A model generated the notes under the pieces. It made no database searches. It was not told where the DNA came from and saw only the letters and a program-made list of their open reading frames with translations. Below are positions 8,662 through 63,272 of a stretch of DNA of 63,272 nt, piece after piece (position 1 is the first letter of the stretch; each line of letters begins with the position of its first letter). Both the position numbers and the translations under genes were made by a program. Source of the stretch: Neophaeotheca triangularis (lineage: Eukaryota). The DNA is taken from assembly GCA_054600435.1 (NCBI GenBank), contig BAAIJX010000023.1, positions 310,001 to 373,272 on the forward strand, in the 5' to 3' direction.

Positions 8662-9566
8662 CCGCTGGCAGAGATTAGCGTCTCTGCTTACTCGCTAGCT
8701 CGTTGTTTGCACAAGCAGTCTACTTGTACTCCTTGCACTACAGACCCGATTTTCAGGTTTGAGGTGGCGCTACAGAGGGTAGTGAGTTCACGGCATTCGG
8801 CTTGTATCTTCGACCGCTTGTTATGCGTGCTTGCACGCGTTTATGGTAGAGTGTACTCGTGGACTAGTTCGAGCATGCAACAACCTTTTCCCGGTCTTCA
8901 TTTTCGATTGCCACTCCGATTCCCGTGTTCCCTATCATTCGTTGTGCCTTTCTACTGAGTAATCTACTGCGTGTAATTTGGAGTGCATACATTACCTACA
9001 CCGCTGCGACTGTCCAGCCAAACATATATCTAATCTAACAAGACATCGTTGCCACGATCAAAATAATACCAATCTTCACCGGTATCGAAGGAATATGATC
9101 CCCTCAGTTTTCGCTCTGAGCAACACAAACTCTCACCCTAGCGACTAGGGTTAAGAAAGGGTGAGGTAGTGGGTGTTTTCTGAGTAGCTTTGTTGATCTG
9201 GATTATGCATGAAAGGGCGAAAGAGAGGCTTGGCTAATGACTGCGGTCTGCGTTTAAGGTGGCTATTGACTTCGAATCGATGCCTAAGTAGGAGAGTTAG
9301 GTGTTTTGACAGGGGTGAAGTCTAAGATCCAAGGGGCATTAGGTGTTTCCATTATTGATTAAGAATTTGATTGGAGTTTACCCAAGCTCTCTTGATTTGC
9401 AACGGGGGGCTTTTGGTAGTGGGATGGCAGCTAGGACCCTGAGTCTCCTCTTTTCTAGAACCTGCTCCCAACGTCCAGGATTAGGAGGTACAAGTTGAAG
9501 ACAACACTCGAGCAACATTCCAACCTCCCGATCGTACCTGACCACTACACCACCACCACCGCAATC

Positions 9567-11102: not shown

Positions 11103-11424
11103 AGAAAAGACGACGGAGGCATGCGCTATGCAGGGATGCGGCTTAGCTCGATGTCATGGTAGGGCGAGATAAAACTCACGAGTGGACGACCGGTACGATT
11201 TCGCTCTTATCGAAATTCGTTACATTGCTCTTCCTCCTCTTACACAGCTTGCCCTTCTCTCACCCACCGCGCACATTCCATTCACCGTAACCAACACTCC
11301 TGCACATTCACCCCGCGCGACAGCGACAAGCACCCCTCAAGCCACGACCAGTAAGCACTCCCGCCATAGTCTGGCCTTACTCTAGCACCACCGCCCCCCC
11401 ACCAACCTGCCCTTCCCCAAACAC

Positions 11425-13360
11425 CTACCGACACCCCCTCCCCCCCACATCCCCCTCGACAATCATCTCACTAGCCCTCTCAGCAACAGCATAAAGCGTA
11501 CTCACCAAATGCCCATCCACCTGAAACGGCAAAACCCCCGCATCCACGACTCGTACATTCTTGGTCCCGTACACGGCCAACCGCGGTTCGACGACGCCGC
11601 CCTCGGACCGGGGCAGCATGGCCGTCGTGCCGATGGGGTGGTAGTTTGGTTCGTCTGTGTGGCAATTTTGCCGTTAGCGCCGTGCTTGGTTGGGGAGGGG
11701 TGGGGTTTGGGTTCTAGCGAGTTTCCACGCTTTGCGTTTCGCTCGGGCTGTTGGGGAGGGCGTGACTGGGGGAGAACGGACATGTCTCTTGGAACCATGG
11801 TTTCCAGGTTTCTGGACCGGCGTCCGCGGGCACCGTCTCGAGGTCTGGGCTCGCCGGGGCGTCGACCAGAGCTGCCAGGGGTGGGGTGGAGAACACGCGG
11901 CGCGCGTGCTTGGCTGTCGCCGTTTGGAGCTGTAGGTCCCAGTCTAGCATGAAGAAGTTTGGGTTGATCAGCGGAGGGGTGCTGGCGTTGGGGCTGCCGA
12001 GGTGCACGCTACCGCGTGAAAAGGGCAGCATGCCCCATAGTGGGGCGGCGAGGGCGGCTTGTGAGGGCGCGAGCAGGATTTCGGCTACAGGGACTGAATG
12101 GTTGAATATTAGGTCGGCTTGGATCGATAGCTGGGCGTGGATTGTCTCCGGGCTTGGGGCGGCGGGATTCTGGGCAGCGATCTGGGCGGCGTAGGCGGGG
12201 AGTTGGGAGCGCAGGTGGGTTGCTACGGCGGAGGTGTTTGGGCCGAAGAGGTCGTGGGCCGTGAGAAAGGCGGCGAAGGGCGTGTAGCCTGTGTATGTTG
12301 TGTTTGCCGCTGCTACTAGGGGGGTGTTTGCTTGGTCTTGGAGGTTCTCGCCGACGGAGGGCAGGTTCACTTTGCAAGGGATGTCGTGTTTGGCGAGAAT
12401 GGCTGGGTTGCCGACGCCCGAGCTTTCGAGGATTCCGGGGCTCTTGAGGCTTCCTGCTGAGAGTATGACTTCGCGCTTCGCCGATAGGGCGTAGGGATCT
12501 CCCCCAGAGGTTGAGCGCACTACCACGCCTGAAGCTTCGGCGAGAGAGGAGACATCATCCTCAGTCCATTCGAGCTTCTCAGCCAGCGTGCCAGTAAAGA
12601 CGTGCAGGTTTCTCCGTTCCGAGACAGGCGCATAGTAACTCCTCGCGGCATCCGCTCGAACGTTACGAATGCCATCGACGGTACTAGGAAACAGGGTGAA
12701 ACCACGCAGAGCACCATCGTTCGAATCTCGATTATAAGGCAAACTCAGATTCATGTAAGTCTGATTCAAGACCTCATGCGCGTCGCCGGCCATGGTGTAA
12801 TTGCTCCAACCGACATCCAGAGGACCATCGTAGCCATGAACGTCCGGGTCGAAAGAAACGCCCCTTTCCGCGAGAGTGGCGTTGGGGGTTAGAAAAGCTT
12901 CCGATTTCAGGTAATAAGGGAACAGGACGTCCCAATTCCAGCCCTCGTTACCCAACACCTCCCACGCATCAATTTGAGCCTTTTGCGCCCGCACATAAGT
13001 CGCTCCGTTGATGGTCGAAGTGCCTCCCAGCGCTTTGCCGGAATTGTAGGTTTTTGTCTCGTTGCCGGCGAAGACTTGAGGCTGGCTCTCGTATTGCCAG
13101 TCGATGTCGCTTCCCAGACTGGCGAAGAAGTTCTGGATTTGCGTGACATTTTCGTTTTGCAAGACTGATTCGCCGGCTTCTACGACTGCTACGCTGGTTT
13201 CGGCGTTCTCGGAGAGGCGGTTGGCGAGCACGAGACCGGTCGTCCCGCCTCCGATGATGATGTAGTCGTAGCCATCCTTCGGGGGCGATGGGGTGCTTTG
13301 TGCAAGAGACACGAGGGACAAGAAAAAATGGGCGATGAAAAAGTTGTACTTTGTCATCAT
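11425..13360 (-). CDS. Secreted GMC oxidoreductase (AA3_2, glucose oxidase/dehydrogenase-like), 2 exons
   Basis: Signal peptide; IIGGGTTG FAD motif; GKALGGTSTING; VGENLQD. After an intron the last exon reads YEPNYHPIGTTAM...VRVVDAGVLPFQVDGH. Confidence 0.9.
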
Positions 13361-41633: not shown

Positions 41634-44234
41634 TTACTGGCTGTTGACCAGCTTCTTCCCTACCTCAAAGATCTCCTCAACCTTGTTGGACTCGAACCTG
41701 ATGTGATACCTCTTCCTTCCGCTGATATCTACTCTTCTGGCTTCGACAGCCGCACCATCCTTCGAAACAACGTTGCGGCCATCGCCGACGGGCAAAATGA
41801 CGGTAAGACCGTGTTGCAGCCAAGGCGGCTCGAAGGCCTTGACTTCTTTGATGAAGCTTACCACGACCTCCGTCGCTGTAGCCGAATAGGTAAGGTCGAA
41901 GTTGGCCACCTTCGCCGGGGGAGGCGACACGCCATCGTCTTCCATCCAAGTGGTCGTGAACGCCTGACCTTCGGAAAGCTCTTCGGTGGGCGGAAAGATT
42001 TCGACTCCGCGCCAGTCGTCCGCTGGGAGGTTGGCCTCATTGGCCCGGTCGCCTGGGGCTACAACTTGCTTGTTCTTGCCCACAGGTACTGCGCCACCGA
42101 TGCGTGCGAGGATTGGAATGCTGGAGCGCCAAGGGCTGGAAATGGAGGCCCAGGTACCGGCCGGAATGTGCTGGTACGGCGCGTTGGTGTTAAGAAAGCC
42201 GAGGTCGCCATTCGACTTCTTTGGCAGGTAGACTTTGGCTTCGCTGACGCCGGGTTCGTATACTCCGCCGATCATCAGCGTGTTGCCCAGCCAGTATTGC
42301 TGCTCGCCGTCTTTGAGCGTCTTGTTCGTCCATACTTCTGAATCGGTCTCGTAACCCCATCCGACCCAGCGCTGCGAGGGAACGGCGGTGAAATGGCTCT
42401 TCAGCATGAGGGAGTAGAGGTATGGAATCATCTCGTAGCGGCGCATGATTGCTGAACGGATCTCTGGCATAATGTGTGGGTACATCCAGGGCTCGATCAC
42501 GTCTCCGACGTTGTTGTCATCGCCTGTCTTGAAGCAATTGATGGCGAAGCGAGGGCTGTGGCAGCCAAGTTGCACCCAACGCAACAGCAATTCCGGTGAC
42601 GGCTGTGGGCCTTCAAACCCGCCAATGTCATGACCGTAGCATTGGATCAAGCACATGCCTGCTGTGAGCGATATCGCGTTGGCTCCGCGCATACCGTCCC
42701 AGCTGGTTACGTTGTCGCCGGACCACGAGGATGCTGCATACTTCATAGTGCCCGCTGTAGCGCTACGAGTGAGAACGAACGGTCGCTCCTCGGGAACAGC
42801 ATCAAGAAGTGCGTCGTAGGAGGCTTTACCGTTGAGTTCTGTCTGCATGGCACGTCCCCACACGCCCATGGTCTTACGCTGCTCCTTGGTAGCGGCAAGA
42901 GCCTTGCCTACAGAATCGTGGGAAAGCTCGAGCATCCAGTCGTCCGAGGGCACTACGTACTCGTTGTTGTCGTTCCACATGCAATCCATGCCCTGTTTGC
43001 GCAGTTCTTTGACACCGTTGTACCAGAACTCGTAACCAGCTTTGGACGTAAAGTCAATGTGGCCGCCTTCACCGCTAGTACCGCCGCCAGCACTCCATAG
43101 GCGACAGACTGCGGATTCCTTTGTACGGGGATCGACGAAAAGGCCCCCCTCGGCGGCGAGACGGGGGTATTGCTCGTGTGAGCCCAGAACGTAGGGCTTG
43201 ATATTACCTATCATTCGAATACCGCGAGCATGGAAGTCATTCAAGAAACCCTTGGGGTCTGGGAAGCGCTCTGGGTTCCAGGTGAAGACGTGGCGATTCT
43301 TTGGTTCAGTAGCTGCTACGGTGTAGCCCGACGACAGCTGGAATCCGGAACAAGGCACGTCGTACTTCTCCAGCTTATCGGCAAACTCCATCAATGCTTT
43401 GTGCGCTGGCGGATCATCTAGCGCTGCGTATTTGTAGCCTCCAGCTAGATACCCGAAGGCCCAACGGGGAACCAAGATCGGGAATCCAACCAAGTCAGCG
43501 TACAACCTCACAACTTCTTCCAGAGTACGGCCAATGAGCGTGTACTGCTCCAAGCCGCCATAGTCCTGGCGGTACACCTTGAAGTAACCCCACATGCCGT
43601 CCATCTCGCTTCCTACGGAGTAGTAGCCGACGGCATGGCTTGTCGAGAACGTTGCCACCACACCGTCAGGGGTCGCGCGCACCATGAGGGGAATGTGCTT
43701 GTACATTGGATCCGAGCGCATGGCATCGTAGCCGAAGCAGTCGGTGGCAGTAAGTTGGAAGTGGCGATTCGATAAGTCCATGGGTGCGGCCTTCTCGCCT
43801 AGACCGACGTGCAGACTGCCGCGTTGATATTTCGTGTAGTGTGCCACACCCTCGCCGTCGAGTGCGTATGAACGGTGTGGCAAATCGGCGTAAAGTGGTT
43901 CCCGGCCGTGGTAGCCGAGGGTGACGACTGGCACTCCATCCCAGTTGACCGTAGCTTCGATGTCGCCGGAAGAGAGAGTTTTCGAAGTTGTCGAGGGGCT
44001 GCTGGTTTGGAAAGATGATTGATCGGTCTCTGGTCTGGTGGCGCTGGGAAAAGGCGGGAGCGGGTGAGTAGAAGATGTAAAAGTGGTGCGGAATACGCCA
44101 GGCTTGACCGCTTCGAAGGAGAAGTCAACGTGCTCTTGGAGCTCGGAATTCTTCAGGTGGACGGAGGCGTCGCCAGATGATTTGGCGGCGTCGGCGAGCG
44201 TGTAAGTCTTGGGCACGAATTCTTTCCGAGGCAT
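41634..44234 (-). CDS. Glycoside hydrolase family 31 (alpha-glucosidase-like), intronless, no signal peptide
   Basis: PRWAFGY; WNDNNE nucleophile; PFVLTRS; WSGDN; GHDIGGF; PELLLRWVQLG. Confidence 0.92.
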   Translation of the reverse strand: MPRKEFVPKTYTLADAAKSSGDASVHLKNSELQEHVDFSFEAVKPGVFRTTFTSSTHPLPPFPSATRPETDQSSFQTSSPSTTSKTLSSGDIEATVNWDGVPVVTLGYHGREPLYADLPHRSYALDGEGVAHYTKYQRGSLHVGLGEKAAPMDLSNRHFQLTATDCFGYDAMRSDPMYKHIPLMVRATPDGVVATFSTSHAVGYYSVGSEMDGMWGYFKVYRQDYGGLEQYTLIGRTLEEVVRLYADLVGFPILVPRWAFGYLAGGYKYAALDDPPAHKALMEFADKLEKYDVPCSGFQLSSGYTVAATEPKNRHVFTWNPERFPDPKGFLNDFHARGIRMIGNIKPYVLGSHEQYPRLAAEGGLFVDPRTKESAVCRLWSAGGGTSGEGGHIDFTSKAGYEFWYNGVKELRKQGMDCMWNDNNEYVVPSDDWMLELSHDSVGKALAATKEQRKTMGVWGRAMQTELNGKASYDALLDAVPEERPFVLTRSATAGTMKYAASSWSGDNVTSWDGMRGANAISLTAGMCLIQCYGHDIGGFEGPQPSPELLLRWVQLGCHSPRFAINCFKTGDDNNVGDVIEPWMYPHIMPEIRSAIMRRYEMIPYLYSLMLKSHFTAVPSQRWVGWGYETDSEVWTNKTLKDGEQQYWLGNTLMIGGVYEPGVSEAKVYLPKKSNGDLGFLNTNAPYQHIPAGTWASISSPWRSSIPILARIGGAVPVGKNKQVVAPGDRANEANLPADDWRGVEIFPPTEELSEGQAFTTTWMEDDGVSPPPAKVANFDLTYSATATEVVVSFIKEVKAFEPPWLQHGLTVILPVGDGRNVVSKDGAAVEARRVDISGRKRYHIRFESNKVEEIFEVGKKLVNSQ

Positions 44235-45058
44235 GGTGGGCGAATGTCGTCGAACGCCAGATAGGAGGTGGAATGGAGAGGGTTGACAGTGAATCGTACG
44301 GAATATGGACCTACCGTTTTATACGAGTACTTTACATCGCCGCCGGTGCTAGAGAGGCCTTCTATGGGGCGATTGGCGGAGGAAGCGTCCGAAACCCGTG
44401 GGGACACATCGTGGAGCAACATCACGCCCGCATGAGTAGGAGAGTTGATTGATGGTTCGCGTGCAGACACCTGTATCAAGCTTGTTCGGAAGCTTTGCGG
44501 ATGCGGCCTTCGGACTTTGCAGCCGAGATGCGATGCAATCTCGAGACTCGCCAAGATGCGGTTGCCAGTCCACCTTTCGCCTTGTGCCTGTAGTCGAATG
44601 GACTGCAAGTGTTCTCACACGGCGATGGGGACTATCTGGGCAAGCTCGAGCAAAGGTGGAGCTACATGATGCTGTTCCGAAGTCGTTGCTTGTAGTATTG
44701 TTGATTTACAAGTGCAGCCCATCATCTAAGGAGACTCGGGCAACGTTCAGATACAAATTGTACTAACTACCCATGTCAATCACGAGGTATACCGTCGGTG
44801 AAGCTCCGTGGCGTGTTTGCGCATAGTACTTGAGGTTTTCAAAAAAGGAGGAGGAGCATTGATCTTGTGTGTAATACCGAGTTGCGGAATCAAGCCTGAA
44901 TAATCAAAAATGTAATTCATCTTCGATGGCTAGACAATACTCGGTGGTAGCCCGCTGGCGTTGAAGCACGTCTGCCCCGTCTTCTTGCAGTTACTGACGA
45001 CGAATGACCTAGGCAAAGTAACCTTATATAGACAATGAAACCAACCGTCTCCCGTCCA

Positions 45059-47281: not shown

Positions 47282-49089
47282 CTACGCATTGATCTCGTCC
47301 CCCACGCTGCGCCAGAAATTACATCTCTGCTCCAACTGCCCGATGCCAACATTCTCGAAACCATCCTCGGTGACCACGAACTCTTCATTACCGCCCCTAC
47401 CCCTGCTTGTACCCTTGGTCCTCCACTTCCCTTTACCTTTCCCACTTCCCCACTGGCTCAAAGTGGGTACGCCCGGCTCCTCATCCCCAGTCAACTTGAA
47501 CTTGTTAGCGTCCCCACTAGCGAGAAAGCTCGCCATGGCACCCGTGTAGCCCTCATAAATCAAGGGATCGCTCTGCTGAACCTCGTTAATTCGATTCCAG
47601 TAGATGGTGTCGCTGCCATGCTCGGCCGGGTCGATTGTGTACTCGCCCAGGTAACCGTTCCCACAACTCGCTTGCGCCATCCAAAGCGCTGGGCAGGTGA
47701 GCACGGTGTCGCGGAATATCAAGCCCGCGCGGACTGCTGTCGAGTTGTAGGAGTCCAGGGTCTCGGTCGAGCCGGTAGGTGGGTATAGGTGAGTAGCCAC
47801 GTAGTGGAAGTTGCGCGCAGAGAGGTTCGGAAGGTAGCCGCGAAGCCAGGCTTCGAAACTCGCTGTCGAGGAGTTGAAGCCGGGGTTGCCTTGTTCGGGG
47901 GTCTCGGGCGTTGTCGTCGCCGAAGACAGTCCAGGCGGAATGAAGTTCTCGCCCTCGTGCGTGTTGTGCATGCCCCAGCCGTGGTGTTGGTTGACGCGGC
48001 CGTGGGCGGTTGCTGATGATAGAGGTTCGCGGATGAAATCGTCGTCGATAACCGGGGCCCAGGTGAAAGAAGAAGTAGTGTATTGATTCTGAGAAGAGAT
48101 GTTCAAGGCCGCGGTACGTAGGATCTGGAGGTCCTGGATCTTAAGGCAGGCGAGGGAGTCCGGGCCGCTGCAATTTGCGAGCGAGGCGAATGCGTCGTAG
48201 ATTCCCTGGGCGGGTGGGGAGCTGTAGTGGTAAGTCTTTTGCCAGAAAGGCGAGCTTGCCAGGGCGTTGGTGAATAGGGGTGGGTCTGTCTTGCCGCCAT
48301 TCGCAATAGTCTGCGCAATCACGCTACCTGCGCCACTGTCGAGATTCGTCGTCAGCTTCAGACCAGGTGGTCAGTCACGAGGTGGGTCGAGGTCTACGAA
48401 CGCTGATTGACCCTGCATGGCTAGAAGGTTAGTCGGAGACGGACCGTAGCAAGACAAGGGAATGCACGCACCCAGATAGAAACGTTGCCAGGATCGCCGC
48501 CAAATTGCGCAATGTACTTTTGCACCCAAACCAGCGCAGCCTGCTGATCTAGCAGCCCGTTGTTCAGATCACTTTTCGGGTCGTCTGCAATCTCTTGTCC
48601 AGGTAGGAAGCCGAAAGCATTGACACGGTAGTTGGGATAGACAAAAATCATCTCATTTTGTTCGGTGGCATTGAGGATTGGGTAGGCCGAGGGCGGAATC
48701 TCGAAGCTCGCACTGCCTCGGATGAAGCCGCCGCCGTAGTAGGTTACGACTACGGGCTTCAACTTCTCGCCTTTCGTCCATGGTCGGCCGTAAAGGCCAA
48801 GGTACAGACAGTCTTCTGTGCCATTTGTCTCGCGCTGAGGGCAGAAGTCGAAGGTCTGCGTGCTGTTGTAGATGCCCTCCGTGATTTCATTTGGAGGCTG
48901 AGGAGCTCGGAATCGGTTCTCGCCGACCGGGGGAGCTGCAAAGGGGATCTTTTGCCAGTACGAGAGGTTGAAATCGGAGCTATATGCGCCTTCGAATGTG
49001 CCGTAGTCGAGCTCGGCGGTGAGGGTCGGCGCGGTAAGCGAGGGGATAGCAAGACCCAAGAGAGTCACCGAGCAAAGAAGCAGATGCAT
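47282..49089 (-). CDS. Secreted type-B carboxylesterase/lipase, 3 exons
   Basis: Signal peptide; IPFAAPPVG; EDCLYL; YGGGF; NNGLLDQQAAL; FGGDP. GQSAG is built with an 11-nt micro-exon (48402-48412). Confidence 0.9.
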
Positions 49090-51560: not shown

Positions 51561-54500
51561 TAAGTAGATCGACCTTATACTACTAATAGAATATACCTAG
51601 GATATACTCGACTTATAATCACGACTATAGTCTATCTAAGTTACTATTATAACTATAGCGCTAGTAGGATAATAGCGGCCTAAGCTATAGAGTAGCTTAG
51701 GAGTACTAAGTATATATACTATAAAAGTATATAAGATAGCTAATAGTGAAGTCTCCTATCTACTATCGAATAGTTTCTATATTAAAGGACTATTACTATT
51801 ATTACTATTATTATGCTCTACCCTCACTATACTATAATCCTAACTAAGTTATAGTCTTAGTCTTATAATTCTATTCGATCTTAGAACCTTCTTAGGTTAA
51901 GATTTGCTTAGACATCATAGTACTATCGCGCTCGCTATACCTATAGGTCGACGACACTAACCTAGTAGACTCCCCTAATACTATTACTAGAGTTAATACC
52001 CTATAAGAATAAGAAGAGGTAGCGATAGACTAATATATAGTTCTTACTACTACTATTATAGAACTCTAATAATAATTAGTAGAGCATATAGCGTCTATCT
52101 AGCGAGCTACTAATAGAGCGACAGTCCTCTATAACGAGTCTAAAAGAGGATATATCGAACTAGAGGACCTAGTAGATATTATCTCTACCCTAGAGGTATA
52201 TAAGTAGATAGTAGACAAAGATCTACCTACTAGCGTAATGATAAAGGAGTAAAAGTCTTATATTAATATTAAGAAAGCTTTTTGCTTAGCTAAACTAATA
52301 GTTTATAGGAGTTACCCTAACCTCCTAAAAGTATAGATGTTTATCTAGTAATACGAGTATATATTTAAAATGTACCCTTATATTTACTTTTATTAGTATA
52401 AGCATATCTAGTATACTATAGGCTATCTATATAGCTATATTAGCTAGAACTAGGAGAGTAAGGAGTTATAACTTAAATATGAAGAGATAAAATAGTCTAT
52501 GTTTAAAGAATAGCTACTAGATTAGATCCTCGACCCTAAAAACTATACTATAAACATAGTATTCTAATGTTTTAGAATGTCTAGAGGGCGACCTAATCTA
52601 TTTATGACTACCTCTCGTATATTAAAGACTCCCTCTATAAGGCTAATGTCGTCTTACTACTAGAGTATACCCTCCTAACCCTTATTAAGATAGGTCTATA
52701 GGAAAATCTTAAGGCTAAGCTAAATGCCTAGCTAATAGTACTAGATAACTATTATAACCTCATTACGCTCTATACATATCTCGACGATTCGAGCTATAGT
52801 AGCTAGGATACTAGAGACGAGATAGTAGATAAGCTATATAAGACTAACTTAAAAGGTTCTAGCTATAAGAAAAAAGAATAAAACTAGAGTATAAGTAATA
52901 ATAACTCTAAACCGCGCTACTAGTATACTAATAGAATACTAGCGACTAGTATAAACTATATAGGTACGACTAATAGTAGCGAACAAAACAATAAAGCCCT
53001 TAAAGAAAACCTCTATTTTAAGTGTAGTAATAAAGGCTACTAGTAAGAAAATTGCTAAAAGGGAAAAGCTTAGCCCTAGGTCATTTAATTGTTAGCCTTA
53101 AAGGCTTAGGGTAGTAAGTAGACAGTATATTAATAGAGCGCCTATAGGTAGTCATAAAGATATATAATCATATCTACGATAGGCTATACTTTAAGGCCTA
53201 TAGGCTTATCGATATAGGAGCATATTATAATGTTATCTTAGAAGACATCGTAGTCTAGTATAACCTACTAATAAAGGGCGACTAGATTTATAGGCTATAA
53301 GCCTTTAGTGATATTAAAGCCCTAATAGTAGGCTAATGTTAACTCTATACTAAAGTCGCTAATTTAGATAGTATAGTTCAAACTATCCTATAGATGTTCG
53401 AAGTAGTAAACTAGAAGGATTATGAAATGATTCTTAGAATACCTTAGATCTAATTTACGAAAGTATAGCTTGATTTCATATCGCTACTAGTATAGTAGTG
53501 CTATAGTAGTATATATAATAAAGAAGAAGTTAAAATTATCGAGGCTAAAGAACTAGCCTAAGATATTAATAGTAGAGCATCTATCCTCGTTATTAGTATA
53601 GAAGACCTATATAGGACCCTAGTAGAGCTATAGGTACCTAAGTAGTTAGTAGAGTATACTAAGGTGTTTAAATTAGAGAAGGTAAAAGAGTTATCTCTAT
53701 ATACGCTTTATAACTACTATGTCGAACTAGTCGAGGGAAAAAACCCTCCTAGTAGACTAATCTACCTATGTTCCGAGCTAGAGCTTAAGAAAATGTAGTC
53801 ATAGATTAATAACCTACTTATAACAGACTATATTAAGCCTAGTACTAGCCCTACTAGCATACTATTACTATTTATTAAGAAGAAAAACAATAAACTTTAT
53901 ATATATATCGATTACTAAGGCTTAAACAAAATTACTATTAAGAATAAGTATCCTTTACTACTTATTAGTAAACTCTTAGATAGAGTCTATAGATTAATGT
54001 GGTTTTCGAAAATCGATTTAGTCAAGGCATACTACTATTTATATATCGCCTAGAGCGATAAGTAGAAGATAGCATTCTACTATTAGTATAGCTATTTCTA
54101 ATATAAGGTTATGCCTTTTAGACTCGCTAATATACTAGCATCATTTTAGGCCTTTATTAATAAGGTACTTATAGAGCTAGTTAACTACTACTATATAGTA
54201 TATATAGATAATGTTCTTATCTATTCCTATACTAAGGTAGAATACTATGAATATATTCGAGTAGTCTACTATTAGCTCGCTAATGCTAAGCTATATACTA
54301 GTCTTAAGAAATACGAATTTATAGTCTAAGAGATTAGATTCCTTAGTTTTATTATTAACTCTACTAGAGTAGCGATAGAGCCCCTATAGGTAGCTATAGT
54401 ATAAGATTAGCTAATACTAAAGTCCTTAAAAGAACTCTAAGTGTTCCTAGGATTCGCGAATTTCTATTGTCGCTTTATCGAGGGATATATAAAAATCACT

Positions 54501-54592: not shown

Positions 54593-54948
54593 TGTCGAGC
54601 GGCGAGAGCACTCGAGAAGCCGGGAGACTAGTTTTTGCTTAGGGAGGTATTGTTCATAACGGTTATGAATAATGTAGCGGGATTAGGAATCGGGTGTAGT
54701 CGAGAATTAGGGATTGTTCGTAACGGTTACGAATAATGCGTTAGGGGTTAGAAATCAGTCAGGTCGGTTATAGTATATAGAGGCCAATTTAAGTAGTCGC
54801 AATTCATTCTATATATGTCTATATAGGTAGGTATCTAAGATATAAGTGCTAGTGTAGGGGGAGGTGTAGGTATGTGAAGGGGGTAATGACAAAGTAAATA
54901 CCGTAAAACTAGTATGTCTACGAATGTAGTACAGGAGTCACCACGACA
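54593..54948 (-). repeat. 3' LTR of element C (356 bp)
   Basis: Ends are TGTCG...CGACA (5-bp inverted termini). It is directly preceded on the minus strand by a purine tract, and its outer edge coincides with the break in element B's RT. Confidence 0.8.
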
Positions 54949-54957
54949 TCCCTCCCT
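54949..54957 (-). promoter_or_regulatory. Polypurine tract of element C
   Basis: AGGGAGGGA immediately before the TGT that starts the LTR. Confidence 0.75.
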
Positions 54958-54997: not shown

Positions 54998-57900
54998 CTA
55001 AACCACTATTAAGTTCTCCTTATCCTACATTTCCTCCGTAAGCTCCTCCTATCCTACTAGTATAGCTCCCCTCTTTCCTTCATCCTATAGCGGTAGAGCG
55101 GAGCTAGAACTTTCCGAATAGTAGAACGACTTATTCTAAAACACCCTTTTCTCTTCGTCTCGCTAATATGCCTAGACGAGCTCGTACGCCTTAACAGCAT
55201 CATCCCGGATTTCCTAAATGTACTTCCGGACGTGACGTAGGCTCTCTATAGTAATAGTGCGTAGTACTTACTAGACGTCGGGGCTCGTGTACTACAATTC
55301 GCCGACAGCTACTCTAGACAAGGCATCCTATGCCGCTAGATGTAGGGTCGCGGGAAACGGTATACGAGGAGCTCTATACTTAGTAGTATAACCGGAGGCA
55401 CTTAACGGGCTAGGCACGAAGTCGCGGTATGTAGTAGTAATGTCGCTCTACTTTCTACTAGTAGTATTCTAAAGGTACTCATGGTCTCGGTCGATTCCTA
55501 CAAACTAGGGTAGGACGGTTATGCGTTAGCGAACGGCTTTTGACGTAGTAGTGCTATAAGGTAGGCGTAGATTAGAAACGCGAACTTCGAAGGCCTTATA
55601 AGGGACCGGCTACTACTTTAAACCCCGGGCTAAGAGCTAGTCTTTCAGTAGGTTCGCGTTATTAATAGCTATAATCTCTTTCTTATAGTCTAGATTATTA
55701 GCGACAAGGAAGTTCGTCTACTCCTCTAGGCGCTAGTACATCCCCTTAACCACTATAGTGTAGTCGTCCTCGAACTCATTAAGGATACTAATACTACCCT
55801 AAATGGTGTATACGCTAGTACCGTTGTTCTATGTAAACACCGGGTTCAAATCGATGTGCCTAAATCTAGTAGAGTCCCTAGGGTACTAGTTCTTAGTGTA
55901 ATATAGGTAGGACACTAGCTAAAGTAGGCCGTTATCGCGTAAGAGAGTATATAGTAAGATTAGTACTAGGCTCTAGCGAAGGTACTGTTGAATTAGGCTA
56001 TAGTACATGTTCCTATACTAGCCCCGGTTAGACATGTTGTTTTATAGGTAGACGTCGTATATACTGAACTCGCTTTTGATCAGGTCCTTAACCTCTAGTA
56101 GCTTAGGGAATAAATCCGGAATGTTAATAGTGCCGTTCTTTTCCTATTCTTTACGCTAGGCGATAGTAACGCCGAGTCCTTCTATAATCCTCGCTTTCTA
56201 GTCCGTGTCGAGATAGCGTATCACGCTAGATTCTACCGGTTTATATACGAAAGTCTCTAAGTCATTAACATCGGCCGAGATCCCTAGTAGACATTAGACT
56301 TCGGTGTTTAGAAACTAGCGGATGTAGCTATAAACGACGTTTTTCTAGGATTGCTTCGGGAGCCTCACGATGTAGAAGATATAGTTATTAGTCATCTTAG
56401 TATCTTTCCCTTAAATAACTAACCCAAGACTCTACGCTACTAGCCTCTAGTGGGTCGTGTACACGCTATAGTGGTAGGCACTATAGCTAGTACATAAGTC
56501 TATACGATCCCTATCTTCCACGATAATACGGAAACCGGTTCTCTAGTCGTTATCGGCCTTAAGCATAACCCGTAACTATAGTAGGGCTATCTTGTCTACC
56601 TTATATGTGTATCGGCTGCCGCGGAGACTACCGTATACAGCATTGCTAGTAAACTAGGCTACCATGACTACTCGGATCTCCTCTAGCGTTAGAGAGGGTA
56701 ACTCGCTAAGCCGGGGTCCTCGTACTACTCGTGTTAGGGCCGTACCCGGGGGCGTAGCTAACATGCCTAGAGACGGAGCTGACGTTCCTACACTAGCGGA
56801 CCGGGTATAAGTGCGAGTACGAAGGGCTAAGGTAGTAGATGTAGGTATAGGCGAGGGTTATAGTGGCTAGTAATACCCCTAGAGCTAGCGACGAAGCTCC
56901 TCCGACATAGACACTATAGATACTACATCCTCCTTAATCGTAGGCATTAGTGGTATGTTAGTGTTTCGAGATCGCGGCTGTCCTATAGGGCTCGGGGAGA
57001 CGGTGCTAACGAAGCGCCCTTCTCGTCGTGGGGTCTCTAGGGCTTTAGGTATCGTTAGGGTAGTAGGATAGGTAAGGAAAGAGAGCTAGCTATCCTGTCC
57101 TCGGTATAGGGCGAGGTCGTTTAGGCGCATCTTTTTATATTTGTCGACTAGCTCCTCCACTATGTTCTATAGCTCGTTAGTAGTCCGCTTAGTCGCAAAC
57201 TTAGATACCTAGTCTATACCTACTACGTAATTAAAGTCGGCCTTAGTGTAGAAGAACGCGCGGAGTGGTTTCCCTTTTCTACTAGTCGGTTAACCTATAG
57301 GAGTTTCTTTAACAAGTCTATATATAGTCTAGATACTAGTAGTAGCACGTAGCTTCTAGAACGTCTACTCGGATGCCTAGGTATATTTAGCGAGATTAAT
57401 GAATCCCCGGGACATATTCTCTAGAGCCATGAAGATGTAGTTAATAGTTTCCGAATTGATAGCTTTAGCGGCATTAACCGGCCTATATAAAGAGAGGAAG
57501 TTCTCCTTTCGAGTAATGTGCGGGTCACGACAGCTACGGGTAGCCATGTCTTTAACCTTCCTAAACTTAGCTCTTTTCGGGGCCTACGTAGGGTCGCTTC
57601 GTGTGTAGTCATCTACTATGTATGCTAATATGTCCTAGTCTTCGCCTACTTTATGCACTATCTTAAGCATAGCGAGCTACGCGGCATCTCGAGCGCGTAA
57701 GTTAGTTATAGTAGTAATCTTTTATAGCATCTCCTTTATAGTGTTTTTAAGCTATACCTTAGAAATGCTTAAGGTGTATCGCTATATGTCGAGTGTTAGA
57801 GCTCCCTATTCGCTAGTCGCTCCTTAGGTTTAGTAGACGCTTAACTAGTTAGTAGACCTCGCTACTATAATGTTGTTAGGCGCAGGCGCGGTCGCGGGTA

Positions 57901-58054
57901 TAGCTAAGGTAGTAGTAGGGCGCATAGTAGCCTAGCTGCTATAAGTAAGGCGAGGGCTTTTAGGAGCTACTAGTTCATTCGAACTACCTAACCTAGAGCT
58001 AGCTTAGGAACCCGCACGTAGGCGCTTCGGAGTAGCTACTTACTTAGGTGCTAT
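54998..58054 (-). pseudogene. ORF3 of element C: ~1020-codon protein with a C-terminal PhyH-like 2OG-Fe(II) dioxygenase domain, RIP-inactivated
   Basis: One frame with no frameshift and only TAA/TAG stops. De-RIP reading: G(W)(C)RNMY(H)SLIQQ; LVSY(P)YYTK; DST(G)FRHIDLN (HxD intact at 55850-55858); I(Q)GSISIL(D)E...(C)TIVVKGM(H); PVP(C)KAFEVRV...LP(H)(G)...RITVLP(W)FVG; KSFYY. The start codon (ATA, presumed ATG) and true stop are uncertain. Confidence 0.75.
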
Positions 58055-58489
58055 AGTTAGCAATCTTAATCTTAACTATAGGAAAAAGAGAGAGAGAGAG
58101 ATATGAAAGTAAGGAGAAGAAGAAAAGTAGAGTTAGTTGCTCTATGTGTCGCGCGCTAAGATGTATCGGGTGTCGGTGTCGGTATCGGTATTAAAGTGAA
58201 AAGGTGTTAGTAAAGTCGTAGGTTTAGGAGAATGTGAAGTAAGGAAGTAGGTGTAGACACTAAAGGACGGAGGTGTCGGAGTAGTAGGTACTAGAGATAT
58301 CGACAAGGTTAAAGAGGTCGTAAAGGTCGGGGGGAGTAGCTACTTCAAGGCTTATCTAGAAGTGAAGCTGAACTACTCGAAGGTTCTCGTAGTGGTGCTA
58401 ATAACAGCTAGTCAGCCGGGTATAGTGTAGTTAGTGTTAATGATGTCTCGGTGTGAGTAAGAGAAGAAGAAGTAGTAGTAGTAGTGGTT

Positions 58490-58548
58490 ACTATTAGAGA
58501 GAGAGAAGAGGTAGAGGGAGCGGAGTAGGAGGGGAGGCCTCTTTTATA
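58490..58548 (-). promoter_or_regulatory. Putative internal promoter for ORF3 (TATA box plus CT-rich tract)
   Basis: The minus strand has TATAAAAG at 58541-58548, then CCTCCCCCTCC...TCTCTCTCTC, about 0.5 kb upstream of ORF3. Confidence 0.45.
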
Positions 58549-58921
58549 GGTAGCTATGTTAGCTAGCGGAGCACGTGTCGGGCATATATCACGTATATAT
58601 TGCTAACTCACGCGCTAGTAATACGAGTAGTGACTACGTGTTAGACACGCGGCATGTAACACTAAAGTGTCATGGGGCGAAGGCAATCATTATTCATAAC
58701 GGTTATGAATAATGTGATGAGCTCGGCTATAACGCCAAGAATTTATAGGGTGAAGGGAGACATTGTTCATAACGGATGTGAACAATATAACGCGGCCGCA
58801 GCGATAACACTACACTACAGGGTGACGGGAGGCATTATTCATAACGGTTACGAATAATGTAGCCACACTAATCTTCATCGGACTCTAGGTCTCTAAATTG
58901 CTCGTACTCTATCGGGTCATA

Positions 58922-61900
58922 CTAAATACTAGGAATCGAGACGAAACTAGCACTACTTCGCCTCGGTACTAGCGCAACATCAGTAGTTAGTTATAACCGC
59001 TAGCTCCTATAAGGCCCTTCCTATATAGCTAGGACGATGTCCTTAGGGTTAGACGCGTTACCCCTAGATATCGAGTGCTCTTCCGCTAGGTCTACGTTGT
59101 CCTCGTCTTACATTACGAGTGTATTATTCCTTAGGTGAAATAGTTTCAATAGTCGACTAGTATACGGCTTATCTAGTACTGTCCCATTAAGCTCCTCGAG
59201 ACGGTATAAGCCTATATTCTCCTAGACAGTTTTGACGCGATATAGACTGAGCTAGCGAGGGGAGAATTTACGGTTCGCCGTCATATTAGTATTACGTACC
59301 GAGTCGAAGAGTAACACTAGATTACCGATAGTTAGTTCCTCTAGCCTTATCTAGTGAGTCTTATCGAAGTACTCCTTATTGAACTCGTAGTAGTATCGTA
59401 AGTATAGAAGGGCTTCGTCTATCTTCTTATCCCGACGTTCGAGCTACTTTATCTACGCTACTAGTAGGTCTTCCGTCATTTAAACGCCGTTCTAGTTAAT
59501 GTTGTACTAGGTTAGGAATAACAACTCTACTAGTAGGATAGGCTCCCTACTATAGATTATAGCTACTAGAGTCATACTAGTAGTAGCTCGCACGGTAGTC
59601 CTATTAGCCTAGAGCGCGCTATAGAGTAGGTCTAGCTACGGTCGTCCGGTATCTCGACTCGCTTTAGCTAACGCATTAATGATGGTCAGGTAGCCTCGTT
59701 CTACTATACTATTAGCTTAGGGGTAATACGGCGAGATCGTAATGTCTTAGATACCGTATCCTTTAAGTAAGACGGTAGTCTACCCTTAGTTCTCTAGGCC
59801 TCTATCGTGGACTAGTTTCCTAAACACTCTATGTCGAGTAACGATATCCTCGTAAAGGAAGCGAGCTAGCCCGCGGCTCTTAGTGTTACGTAGTGGTCGG
59901 CCTTCTACCTAGCCAGACATATCTTCCCGGGTAAGGGTAATGTACTAGAAAGTACGGGATTCCGGCATTCGTACTAGGTCGACGGCCTACTTCCTACCCA
60001 CTACGTTCATATAGGTAGGGTGTAGTAGTTCTTCTAATCGGTTCTATACGCGTAGCTAACACTCCTAGTAGGTTTTAACATATACCGTAATAGTATTATA
60101 CATGCCTTCCTACTAGTACCTATCTACTACTTTCTAGTATGTCCCTTCTCTTCTATAGTGACTACTCTTATCGTGAAGTTCCTTTATTATTTGTAGTCGG
60201 TTCCGCTCTCCGTCTACTATACGAGTTAATAGCTAGTTCCTATTTATATAGCGAAACAGTTAGTCGTTACGGACTAGGAATCATATTACTTGTCGCTTAA
60301 ATGCTCGGAACTCCGATTTAGATAGGTCTATAGGCCTTCATATAGTCATGAGCTAGTAGGCGACATTTTGCGAGTACTTAGAGTAGGTAGAGTTGAGCAT
60401 ATTGTCGTTAGTAGGTTCCCCCTCCCTATTAGAAGGAGTCGAAGCTCCGTCTTCGCTACTCGCGGGCGTTAGGCTATACACTAGGAGTAACCCTACTACA
60501 TAGGTAGATCCTCGATTTTCGTTACCAGTATACGTTAGGACTAGCGCTAGGGGTAGCCCTACCGCTAAGGCTAGTACTCTACTCCTACTAATAGTAGACG
60601 TTAGGCCTAGTGCCTAGGGCAGCCCTACCGAAATGCTGTCGAGATAGACGTCAACCTAGTCGTCGATGTCTTTAGTATTAACCGGTCTATTAGACTTCTA
60701 GGATAGGCCGTTAGCAATGACGTTTTTCGTACTAGCGACATGTCGTATGTCGAAATCAAATAGTTGAATCTAAGCTAGCTAGCGAGTTACTATAGTATTC
60801 GGCACGTCTAACGTAACCTTGTTAAGCTAAGTAACTAGCGTGTTAGTGTCTGTTTTGACTACAAACCTCGTACCGTAAAGGTATAGCCGTAACCTTTTAA
60901 GAGCGATTATTAACGCCCGGCACTCGAGCTTAATAGCATCATATTTCTACTCGCCCTCGTTCTAGAGACCGCTATTATACTGGATAACTCGTCTTTTTGC
61001 GCTAGCAACTTCTTGTTATAAGTAAAGTCCCTAGCTAGTACTACATGTATCGACTATAAGAACTAGTTAGCCTACGTCCACGCCGTATTCAACCGGGGCT
61101 ACGATCGGGAATTTCATCAGCTACTCTTTTAGGTCCGCCATTACCGCAGCTTGTTCCGGTCCCTAGATAAAAGGTATATCTTTCCGCGTAAGCGCAATAA
61201 TCGGTCTCGTATACTATATAAATCCCTAGATCAACTACTTGTAGTACGTGTACATTCTAATAAAGTCACGAGCTTCACGTAATGTGCGACACTTAGTCTA
61301 CTCAGTAATAGCTTCAACCTTTAAGCGCGACGGCTTTATACTACTAGACGTGTATATAAAGCCGACAACCTCAAGCTCCTCGGAAAGGAAGTACAATTTC
61401 CCTATAGCGATAGTACATCTAGCTCGCTCTATGTCCGCGAGTAGTCAGTCTAGTTTCCGGATATAGTTGTAGACCGGGAGCCTAATACCGGGTAAAGGGT
61501 TAGGGTCGCCCTAGGAGTCACTACGGTCGCTAATAGCGACGATGTCGTCGACATATAGGACGGCGTCATGCGGATATAGTACTATGAGCATCCACATCAT
61601 GACTCGGCAAAAGACAGCTACTAAGTTCGTCTAGCCTATTAGTAAGGTTATCTGCCTTAGGAGCTCTAATAGAGTCATGATGGCTATCATGTTGCGACTT
61701 TCTTCGTATAACTAGATTTCGTTATATCTAGAGAAAACGTCATATAGTGAGAGGAGTAGTCTACCCGTAACATGGTAGACGAAGCTCGCGAGATCCGGTA
61801 ACATTATAGCGTCTCGAACTGTAACCGAATTCAGGATAGTAGCTAAGTTAATTAGCCTATGTTTACTATTCTTCTTTTTAACTAGAAACTAAGGATTCCG

Positions 61901-62941
61901 GTATTGTCCTTAGCTACACTTAAGGACACCGGCTTTTAGTCGGTCTTCTAACATCTCGACGAGCTCCCTAGATAAAGCTTTTAGCACGGGATATGTCTTA
62001 GCCTACTAGGCTTTATAGGGTACTGTTCTCATCTTAACTAGAGGGTACATGTCTTCGTGGATTATGCTACACTCCTTAAAGTCCTAGGTAAGGGCTAGCT
62101 CATAGGCTATTAATATCGCTTCGAATAGCCGACGTTCTTCTAGTAAGAGCGTGATGTCAACTATTACTCCTACTATCCGCTCCGGGGTCAACCTATAGCC
62201 TCTTAGCTCTTATGTATATCGCGGTTTGAAGTGGCTATTATACTTAGAGTAGGCGATAAGATCTTTCGGTATACTCTTAATCTAGCGCTCTATAGCTTTC
62301 TTTCGCCAATCCAATTGTCTACTAGGAATTTCGGACAGGATAGTACTCGAGTCGTCGATAGGAACTACCTTGTCTACCTTCTGTTTAGCTATAGTCATGA
62401 CACTGAAATCCTCCTTTAGTAGTAAGGTAGGGTCGGAGGCGAGAGCTATAAGTTCTAAAGGTTTTACACTCTACGAGAGCTTCACACTATCTACTGTCAT
62501 GCTAGACCTCTATACGTAAGAGACCCTACCTAGGGTATTGTTCGTAGTAGTTATGAACAATGCTCGGGTACTAGTCGTGGAGTTAGCGGAGCGTCTAGGT
62601 GTCACGTGACTAGAGGCATTGTTCGTAGTAGTTACGAATAATGCTCGGGTACTAGTCGCGGAGTCAGCGGAGCGTCTAGGTGTCACGTGACTAGAGGCAT
62701 TGTTCGTAGCGGTTACGAACAATGCTCGGGTACTAGTCGTGGAGTCAGTAGAGCGTGTAGATATCACGTGACCGGAGGCATTGTTCGTAGCGGTTACGAA
62801 TAATACTCGGGTCGTCGTAGTGTTATCGGTCGCTTCGCGAATAGTAGGATTGTTCGTAACGGTTATGAATAATGATTTGCTTGGTTCTCGGTAGGTATTA
62901 GCGGTAGTAATCGAACCTACTTGTCCGCCCTACCTTTTAAC
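58922..62941 (-). pseudogene. pol: pol of element C (RT, RNase H, integrase; no chromodomain seen)
   Basis: RLTPER; YRNP(W)FLVKKKN; YVDD at 61544-61555; RNase H KLECRAL...KTD...LFDFDIRHV; integrase LHD..(G)H...VKT(C)(Q)EC; AVDLV; ISPYYP(Q)AN(G).VERG. Confidence 0.9.
62537..62873. repeat. 81-bp tandem repeats (about 3.5 units), each with a 25-bp palindrome, in frame within pol
   Basis: Palindrome copies start at 62537, 62618, 62699, 62780 and 62849. The unit encodes TSTRALFVTATNNASSHVTPRRSADSA. Confidence 0.9.
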
Positions 62942-63151
62942 GAATGAATAGAGGACGCGCTCTGATCTACACGTACTACGTACATGCCGACACCATTAAG
63001 GGAGAAATGGTCTCTAGCTTTAGAATCCGAGCCCACTAGTCGACGAATTCCTATACTAGGGACAAAGTCCGTAGTCGCTAAACCATCCTCGCTAGTGACC
63101 CGGTAGGTGACTTTACCCGACGGATTCCTCCGAACTTCGAGGGAAGTGCGA

Positions 63152-63272
63152 TAGGGTTAGGGTTAGGGTTAGGGTTAGGGTTAGGGTTAGGGTTAGGGTT
63201 AGGGTTAGGGTTAGGGTTAGGGTTAGGGTTAGGGTTAGGGTTAGGGTTAGGGTTAGGGTTAGGGTTAGGGTT
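63152..63272 (+). repeat. Telomere (TTAGGG)n
   Basis: TAGGG, then 19 perfect TTAGGG units, then TT at the window end. Confidence 0.99.

Follow-up and report, generated by a model that had tools for sequence, protein, structure and literature searches.

The window analysed here is a stretch of 63,272 nucleotides of Neophaeotheca triangularis DNA (GenBank assembly GCA_054600435.1, contig BAAIJX010000023.1, positions 310,001 to 373,272 of the forward strand), and its last coding feature before a chromosome end is a truncated Ty3/gypsy retrotransposon. This element appears to be a dead copy of a Pezizomycotina Ty3/gypsy lineage that carries a third gene, here called ORFx, after the integrase and before the polypurine tract (PPT) and the 3' long terminal repeat (LTR). 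ORFx is very probably a real, selected dioxygenase gene that belongs to the element, and this membership is indicated by the gene order of intact relatives, by the nearest relatives that pol and ORFx share, by the PPT/LTR junction, and by the equal load of repeat-induced point mutation (RIP) in the two genes. The parts of the window copy are the following.

54593..54948, minus strand: candidate 3' LTR with the inverted termini TGTCG...CGACA, read directly from the sequence.
54949..54957, minus strand: polypurine tract AGGGAGGGA, adjoining the LTR on its 5' side.
54998..58054, minus strand: ORFx pseudogene, 1019 codons with 65 TAA/TAG stops, recognised by homology to a family of proteins of ~900-1150 residues.
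55025..56257, minus strand: predicted PhyH-like Fe(II)/2-oxoglutarate (2OG) dioxygenase domain of ORFx (residues ~600-1010), fold assigned on the homologue L001.
58055..58871, minus strand: pol-ORFx spacer with tandem repeats, TATAAAAG and a CT-rich tract.
58872..62500, minus strand: RIP-degraded Ty3/gypsy pol (reverse transcriptase (RT), RNase H, integrase) in a single frame, from Pfam and tblastn.
62530..62874, minus strand: array of 81-bp tandem repeats plus one more unit, at the site expected of gag and protease.
63152..63272, no strand assigned: telomere repeats (TTAGGG)n; no other coding feature separates the element from this end of the chromosome.

ORFx had been proposed from the letters of the DNA, without database searches, as a single frame of about 1020 codons on the pol strand with about 60 stops, all TAA or TAG, and this description was close to the mark: the minus-strand frame from 58054 to 54998 has 1019 codons and 65 in-frame stops (12 TAA, 53 TAG and no TGA). 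The other two frames of the same strand contain 80 and 101 stops, including 6 and 8 TGA, respectively; the stop count alone does not single out the ORFx frame, and it is homology that does so. A phmmer search of 1.84 billion representative proteins with this frame found 366 proteins at E ≤ 1e-3, of which 196 reach ≤ 1e-10 and 25 reach ≤ 1e-30; the best E value is 5.9e-39. Single unbroken alignment stretches span query residues ~600-1000, so that no frameshift interrupts the C-terminal domain, and when 21 sequences are aligned the window frame runs collinear with the family from end to end, the N-terminal half included. Eight motifs quoted in the original prediction (FRHIDLN, RNMY, SLIQQ, LVSY, GSISIL, KAFEVRV, RITVLP and FVG) were searched for, and all lie in this frame, at 56014-55504. 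An in-frame ATG at 57925 is a candidate start.

The stops had been attributed to RIP, and both composition and position agree with that attribution. GC content is ~55% as far as ~48.5 kb and drops to 30-45% in the stretch that begins at 49 kb and ends at the telomere. In this AT-rich part TpA/ApT is 1.5-2.2 and (CpA+TpG)/(ApC+GpT) is 0.33-0.60, compared with 0.71 and 1.15 in the gene-rich part of the window, and such dinucleotide indices are those of RIP. ORFx (2.23 and 0.38) and pol (2.03 and 0.38) have similar values. Stops stand at the family-invariant Trp residues 679, 779 and 850 and at the invariant Gln 752; in columns with a majority residue of at least 50%, six stops fall on Trp, two on Gln and nine on other residues. 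Moreover, the window differs from the family in 31 columns that are at least 90% conserved, and many of these changes are RIP-type transitions, namely His to Tyr (four times), Cys to Tyr (three times, or four), Gly to Ser, Asp to Asn, Pro to Leu and Met to Ile. At the position of the distal catalytic His (residue 833, 55558-55556) the window reads TAT (Tyr), as the original prediction had supposed in deriving it from CAT. The HxD motif is intact (FRHIDLN, codons 55858-55850), the conserved Arg is retained 11 residues past position 833 (residue 844, 55525-55523, in RITVLP), and the His-to-His spacing of 100 residues is the family mode.

The named members of the ORFx family are all 'hypothetical' proteins, from Rhinocladiella, Bathelium, Flavoplaca, Onygenales, Venturia and Zasmidium, and the named hosts belong to the Dothideomycetes, Eurotiomycetes and Lecanoromycetes. 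These proteins, of ~900-1150 residues, begin with a helical domain and a disordered linker, continue with a second helical module that bears the CxC...CxxH motif, and end in the dioxygenase domain; in one homologue (P0071, 1289 residues) a Ulp1 protease (Peptidase_C48) domain is fused C-terminal to the dioxygenase domain. Pfam PhyH (PF05721, gathering score 22 bits) is matched weakly by seven of 15 homologues, four of which reach 22 bits, the best being P0011 at 29.9 bits. In the set of genomic loci described below, the ORFx proteins of L029, L038 and L043 also pass this cut-off, and that of L001 scores 17 bits. At the thresholds used, the Pfam scans of homologues gave only this weak PhyH signal, with no match to Tet_JBP, 2OG-FeII_Oxy or JmjC, and none to PF07350 (DUF1479) at E ≤ 0.01 or stricter.

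The fold was assigned on the homologue L001, in place of the window copy. The last 467 residues of L001 ORFx were modelled with AlphaFold from a 50-row alignment, and the model has a predicted local distance difference test score (pLDDT) of 85.1 and a predicted template modelling score of 0.81. The best PDB matches found with Foldseek are all of the PhyH type (SnoN, proline hydroxylase, DUF1479, EctD and GriE; E ~1e-7). In VIA-align the domain is closest to YbiU of Yersinia pestis (4rgk; Z 21.2, 276 residues aligned, root-mean-square deviation 3.0) and to Gig2 of Candida albicans (6akz; Z 19.5), followed by a plateau at Z 13-15 formed by EvdO1, proline hydroxylase, SnoK, KanJ, EctD, PhyH (2a1x, 13.6) and PHYHD1 (13.0). 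ALKBH3 (8jnr, Z 8.1) and AlkB (3h8o, Z 8.1) score far lower, as does NgTET1 (5cg8, Z 8.0, rank 50), which lies in the general background of the double-stranded beta-helix, and no JmjC entry is among the best 50 matches listed, an absence from a list that does not exclude that family. The model therefore places the C-terminal domain of ORFx, as a predicted double-stranded beta-helix dioxygenase, in the PhyH clan, nearest to its uncharacterised YbiU/Gig2 (DUF1479) branch. The PhyH-like assignment made from the sequence and the fold that it anticipated thus gain support, whereas the suggested kinship with TET/JBP, AlkB and JmjC enzymes holds at the level of the superfamily fold and not more closely, with Z ~8 against 21 for YbiU. 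YbiU and Gig2 themselves, although the best structural matches (276-280 residues aligned), are only 12-13% identical to ORFx and are stand-alone cellular proteins of ~420-450 residues that lack the N-terminal modules. When the family alignment was run as a profile against PDB sequences, nothing meaningful came up (best E 0.045, a designed helical protein), and in the ESM Atlas an intact homologue led to PhyH/Gig2-like clusters of Ascomycota with scores of 0.86-0.87, which lie below 0.9 and serve as leads only.

Conservation is strong at the catalytic residues. His and Asp of HxD are invariant, the distal His is at least 90% conserved and the Arg of RRTxLPW is invariant, yet the proteins compared are only 20-35% identical overall. 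Of the 84 full-length members, 75 have the motif HxD, ~100 residues, H[GS], 6-14 residues, RxTxxP. The Arg ~10 positions past the distal His would presumably bind the C5 carboxylate of 2OG, as in PhyH-type enzymes, and the His-to-Arg spacing matches the PhyH-type arrangement, a point that counts against membership in the TET/JBP, AlkB or JmjC families.

The N-terminal 530 residues were modelled with a pLDDT of 75, as a helical domain at ~15-210, a disordered linker at 212-350 and a second helical module in which C361, C363, C407 and H410 are invariant or at least 90% conserved. CxC...CxxH occurs in 74 of the 84 full-length members and a run of four Lys/Arg in 38 of them, and the linker often carries Lys/Arg runs. 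The CxC...CxxH module may bind zinc, and the ORFx protein may be nuclear.

Scanning of metagenome contigs with the family alignment gave 137 relatives, from which 80 loci were kept, and these provide the evidence that ORFx is part of an element. Five distinct intact LTR-gag-pol-ORFx elements (L001, L024, L035, L044 and L045) have the order LTR, gag/protease, RT/RNase H/integrase, ORFx, PPT, LTR. L001 has intact frames for gag with an Asp protease (1059 residues), for RT-RNase H-integrase (1214 residues) and for ORFx (986 residues), located between direct repeats 10,365 nucleotides apart, one of which is cut short where the contig stops. In L024, gag (Retrotrans_gag, Ty3_capsid), pol and ORFx are likewise intact, although the integrase region is only ~20% identical to that of L001; L035, L044 and L045 combine a fused gag-pol frame of 2168-2365 residues with an intact ORFx. 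In L018, L022 and L032, diverged LTR pairs (92-96% identity; LTRs of 357, ~300-320 and 149 nucleotides, respectively) enclose degraded gag-pol-ORFx units. Twenty loci extend 3 kb or more beyond the estimated ORFx start on its upstream side, and in 8 of these 20 a gypsy pol lies directly upstream on the same strand; four shorter loci (L020, L025 of the L024 family, L026 and L080) have upstream pol remnants. Trees of pol and ORFx for ten elements, made by a quick search and with long branches, show the same clades wherever these are resolved (L001+L032 and L045+(L044+L052)), and the window groups with L018, L022 and L035 in the pol tree and with L022 in the ORFx tree.

The window copy fits this arrangement in the parts that it has retained. 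Its pol matches RT_RNaseH (1.2e-14) and then Integrase_H2C2 (7.4e-8) in one minus-strand frame, and residues 126-1165 of the intact L001 pol, which contains RVT_1, RT_RNaseH, Integrase_H2C2 and rve, align to window 62407-59084 with 37% identity (tblastn); the Ty3/gypsy order RT, RNase H, integrase is thus found in the window. At the other end, the ORFx stop is followed after ~40-50 nucleotides by AGGGAGGGA and then by TGTCGTGG, a TG-initiated LTR; the pattern TGTCGTGGTGACTCC occurs once in the window. A polypurine tract abutting a TG...CA 3' LTR is therefore present (AGGGAGGGA, then TGTCG...CGACA), and the relatives have junctions of the same type, GGGGGAGGTA followed by TGTGGTGG (TGTGG start) in L001 and GGGGGAGGGA followed by TGTAGCG in L022. 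The boundaries of the original prediction were roughly right and needed correction in detail: the pol frame runs to ~58872 and not to ~58922, the LTR starts with TGTCG at 54948, and 54957-54949 is the PPT.

Two further observations concern the relatives. L021 has an intact ORFx (8675-11431, 919 residues) beside an upstream pol broken into small ORFs, and near-identical copies of this ORFx are present in L019 and L020; it could be a domesticated copy or a non-autonomous element. In addition, a second PPT-like purine run, G-rich in most cases, lies at most ~70 nucleotides after the pol stop in seven of nine gypsy-ORFx elements (L001:8317-8332, with equivalents in L018, L032, L035, L044, L045 and L052). 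Runs of nine or more purines are not rare by chance, and this second run would fit an ORFx cassette inserted between an ancestral PPT and the LTR.

Selection on ORFx is apparent from the C-terminal half, in which the ratio of nonsynonymous to synonymous substitution rates (dN/dS) is 0.09-0.21 in six pairs with dS below 2.2 (for example, 0.21 at dS 0.52 for L029/L036 and 0.11 at dS 0.77 for L008/L009). Together with the five intact three-gene elements and the invariant catalytic residues, these ratios favour the earlier proposal that ORFx is a maintained cargo gene.

In active elements, ORFx would probably be expressed from its own message starting in the pol-ORFx spacer. The window spacer contains TATAAAAG at 58548-58541 and a CT-rich tract at 58540-58491, the L001 spacer contains CCAAT boxes, and the spacers in general carry CCAAT or TATA motifs, which are weak hints that the spacer may act as an internal promoter. 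Contigs that are 90-95% identical to L001, drawn from three metatranscriptome libraries and a fourth library that is probably also of RNA, span the whole element with both LTRs; uncovered parts and runs with a small share were left out of account. In run X14, a 3236-nucleotide contig spans 8536-11780 (spacer, ORFx and LTR) at a depth of 39.5, and a pol contig (4822-8557) has a depth of 15, which gives a weak hint of a separate ORFx message. Two other contigs are of an unusual structure: one from run X6 joins L001 positions 2511 and 8289, as if pol had been deleted, at a depth above that of the full-length contigs, and one from run X14 skips 56 nucleotides (L001:4029-4086) with CT..AC ends, which are GT..AG on the opposite strand.

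The spacer also holds part of a set of repeats. Repeat clusters with units of 72-81 bp share, with flanks, a palindromic core of ~26 nucleotides (TTCGTAAC-C-GTTACGAA) and are found upstream of pol (62530-62874), upstream of ORFx (58657-58863, three units of ~72 bp with the palindrome) and inside the LTR (54642-54740, two palindrome-bearing units). With transitions collapsed, the arrays upstream of pol and upstream of ORFx align with a local score of 136, compared with 70.5 ± 8 for shuffled sequences. These repeats could be enhancer-like or regulatory sites, or the substrate of a recombination that removed gag. The 81-bp array (62530-62874), then 277 bp and then the telomere occupy the place of gag. 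The telomere-side segment was considered as a 5' LTR and rejected: its transition-collapsed alignment score of 93 against the 3' LTR exceeds that of shuffles (60.9 ± 8.1, maximum 78), but the repeats drive the score.

ORFx is not specific to gypsy elements. The original prediction had made it a test how often homologues lie between integrase and an LTR, and whether the gene ever has terminal inverted repeats (TIRs) and a target site duplication (TSD) of its own; the gypsy setting is borne out at 8 of the 20 informative loci, but ORFx also occurs in a TIR/TSD transposon. The latter, L008:5318-11724, is a DNA transposon with 63-nucleotide TIRs (94% complementary) and a 5-bp GAAGA target duplication, and its TIRs enclose an rva_4 integrase-core ORF, a 405-residue ORF and an intact ORFx. 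Transposable elements (TEs) abound at most of the 12 loci that have no pol. Helitron Rep/helicase ORFs lie directly after ORFx and convergent with it in L029 and L036, and ~4 kb upstream on the opposite strand in L023; a Plavaka transposase lies near ORFx in L048 and a DUF6589 protein in L038. L005 (1376-5212) and L014 (3128-6991) each have, upstream of ORFx on the same strand, an ORF of ~1280 residues without a Pfam family; the two are homologous (22% identity, E 9e-37) and may mark another kind of carrier element. Several assemblies contain multi-copy degraded versions of ORFx with many stops. Of the 12 loci without pol, only L042 sits among ordinary host genes, and its open frame is short (235 residues). 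Other repeats were noted around such loci: palindromic tandem repeat clusters flank the ORFs in L005, inverted repeats of 73 nucleotides lying 10.9 kb apart enclose ORFx and SNF2-like ORFs in L010, and direct repeats of 249 nucleotides lie 10.3 kb apart in L029.

Several points weigh against ORFx as a selected enzyme gene of a gypsy element. The window copy is a dead one, inactivated by RIP, and its translation has no Pfam match. The name LTR retrotransposon, used in the original prediction, is warranted by the gypsy pol, the PPT and one LTR candidate, but the window has no gag or protease remnant detectable by tblastn with L001 gag-protease, no primer-binding site (PBS) in the element and no second LTR copy, only short palindromic repeat units recurring; it holds a truncated gypsy retrotransposon and not a complete LTR retrotransposon. 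The membership of ORFx in the element, as far as this copy is concerned, rests on comparison with its relatives. No pol is found upstream in 12 of the 20 informative loci, and in a 74-row ORFx tree gypsy-linked copies are interleaved with others, so that ORFx has the look of a gene handed from one TE class to another, like TET/JBP in other fungi. For pairs of intact gypsy-linked copies, dS is saturated or undefined in all cases. The RNA evidence consists of assembled contigs, which do not reach transcript starts, ends or levels, and RNA libraries can hold DNA. The N-terminal domains have no Foldseek match at E ≤ 0.001, with generic helical bundles as the best VIA-align result (Z 7.1), and the nearest solved relatives of known function act on small molecules.

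This last point leads to the function of the enzyme. It is likely that the ORFx enzyme serves the element rather than host metabolism, and its substrate would most likely be a macromolecule of the host or the element, or a modification involved in silencing. The most likely specific role, proposed because orchid gypsy elements carry AlkB and DNA transposons of fungi carry TET/JBP as analogous cargo, is that ORFx interferes with host silencing (RIP, 5-methylcytosine (5mC) or heterochromatin marked at histone H3 lysine 9 (H3K9)) by oxidising a mark or a protein; we regard this as possible but tentative. The wider form of the proposal, that ORFx is a shared Pezizomycotina counter-defence gene with its own targeting modules, exchanged among LTR, TIR and possibly Helitron elements and protecting its carrier from RIP, DNA methylation or H3K9 heterochromatin, is likewise conjectural at present and may well be wrong.

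The chief rival, that ORFx is a small-molecule hydroxylase of the host metabolic type, carried as a beneficial or neutral passenger without a role in the life cycle of the element or in silencing, appears unlikely, although it deserves to be taken seriously. The close structural neighbours of known function (SnoN/SnoK, EctD, GriE, proline hydroxylases, EvdO1 and KanJ) all act on small molecules, the L042 locus lies among host genes, and L021 keeps ORFx intact beside a degraded pol. However, a conserved N-terminal extension of ~500 residues with the CxC...CxxH module (74/84) and Lys/Arg runs (38/84) is atypical of metabolic PhyH enzymes, ORFx recurs inside or beside at least two TE classes, and its degraded copies are numerous in several assemblies. 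The gene might instead encode a structural, env-like or regulatory protein with a catalytically inert dioxygenase fold, as its env position and its large non-catalytic N-terminal domains without a matching fold would allow; with HxD...H and Arg invariant or nearly so in proteins so divergent, this is very improbable. We give slightly less credence still to ORFx as an independent gene, or part of another mobile element, that lies by chance beside a truncated pol in a RIP-degraded subtelomeric TE graveyard. The missing 5' LTR, PBS and gag, another RIP-degraded RT of opposite orientation in the block at 49-54.6 kb, the 12 loci without pol and the TIR transposon of L008 are what such a view can draw on. 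Yet the order, strand and spacing of pol, spacer, ORFx, PPT and LTR recur in 8 of 20 informative loci, enclosed by LTR pairs, pol and ORFx of the window have the same nearest relatives and similar RIP indices, and a PPT and a TG-initiated LTR lie within ~50 nucleotides of the ORFx stop, as in L001. Least probable of all is that ORFx is a member of the TET/JBP, AlkB or JmjC families with direct demethylase activity on DNA, RNA or histones, for which a common superfamily fold and the presence of TET/JBP (PMC12730594) and AlkB (PMC9289625) in TEs elsewhere can be cited, against Z scores of 8.0-8.1 for ALKBH3, AlkB and NgTET1 compared with 21.2, 19.5 and many of 13-15 for PhyH-type proteins, and Pfam scans that, at the thresholds used, gave weak PhyH only.

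The window copy was killed by RIP, has lost its 5' LTR, gag and protease and abuts the telomere. The chromosome end is given by (TTAGGG)n, read outward, at 63152-63272; the telomere repeats begin 277 bp from the 81-bp array (62875-63272), and the chromosome end is inside or just beyond the truncated element. On the other side, a second retroelement is represented by a RIP-degraded RT (Pfam RVT_1, 1.5e-10) at ~53874-54357 on the plus strand, opposite in orientation to the ORFx element; this remnant ends ~240 bp beyond the LTR end at 54593, and the gypsy-ORFx element may be nested in it. Part of a carboxylesterase gene (COesterase, 5.8e-33; 48500-49020, minus strand) lies exactly at the border between normal GC and the RIP block, and in the gene-rich part a GH31 alpha-glucosidase (41634-44318) shares 69-74% identity with proteins from Neohortaea, Pseudocercospora, Saxophila and Dothistroma, which places the host among the Dothideomycetes, near the Mycosphaerellales/Capnodiales.

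It is rare for an LTR retrotransposon to fix an additional gene for an enzyme. The env ORFs of errantiviruses and retroviruses occupy the same position as ORFx, from integrase to PPT/3' LTR, and a separate message is likely for both, but env encodes a glycoprotein whereas ORFx has an enzyme fold, and nothing suggests a role of ORFx in cell entry, although no search aimed at membrane-protein features was made. A closer parallel is found in Ty3/gypsy elements of Phalaenopsis, in which an extra ORF encodes an AlkB-type 2OG dioxygenase, reported as an N6-methyladenosine (m6A) RNA demethylase and assayed in vitro (PMC9289625). Those elements are likewise gypsy LTR elements with an added Fe(II)/2OG dioxygenase ORF, read there as a counter to host surveillance, but they belong to a plant and encode an AlkB-type enzyme (PMC9289625), whereas ORFx is fungal, PhyH/Gig2-like, ~1000 residues long with a large N-terminal part, and also present in other TE classes. 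In fungi, TET/JBP genes are carried by DNA transposons (KDZ, Plavaka, EnSpm, hAT, Harbinger, IS3EU and Helitron), so that there, too, TE lineages that are unrelated to one another share a 2OG dioxygenase as an accessory gene, and the 2025 survey of TET/JBP explicitly found none in retrotransposons (PMC12730594). Like TET/JBP cargo, ORFx is found with DNA transposons, enclosed in the TIR/TSD transposon of L008 and next to Helitron and Plavaka genes at other loci; unlike it, ORFx belongs to another dioxygenase family and is found in LTR retrotransposons. The hosts also differ, being rusts, mushrooms and Pezizales for TET/JBP (PMC12730594), and Dothideomycetes, Eurotiomycetes and Lecanoromycetes for the named ORFx proteins. 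Literature searches, with Repbase and paper supplements outside their scope, found no PhyH/DUF1479-like ORF described in fungal LTR retrotransposons, in line with the original prediction, which knew of no such cargo in a fungal gypsy element. The term 'dioxygenase' is absent from the text covered of 'LTR Retrotransposons in Fungi' (PMC3248453), Figure S1 and the supplements being outside its scope.

Overall, TE-borne 2OG dioxygenases and extra ORFs in gypsy elements are already known, and what is new is the ORFx enzyme family, its host group and its spread across TE classes. The TE-borne families known so far are TET/JBP, from DNA transposons of fungi, and AlkB, from a single gypsy lineage of orchids; ORFx adds a third family, unrelated to these, which purifying selection has kept conserved in gypsy elements from several classes of ascomycetes and which is present in at least one TIR/TSD transposon. 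That unrelated TEs have recruited it repeatedly suggests a benefit to mobile DNA in general where RIP and heterochromatin police genomes, and ORFx is a concrete, expressible protein with which such a benefit can be tested. It is also an entry point to the function of the YbiU/Gig2 branch of the PhyH clan, which is uncharacterised. If a counter-defence role is true, ORFx would be the equivalent, in ascomycetes and in retrotransposons, of TET/JBP cargo, and its chemistry would be one that the PhyH clan has so far not been assigned.

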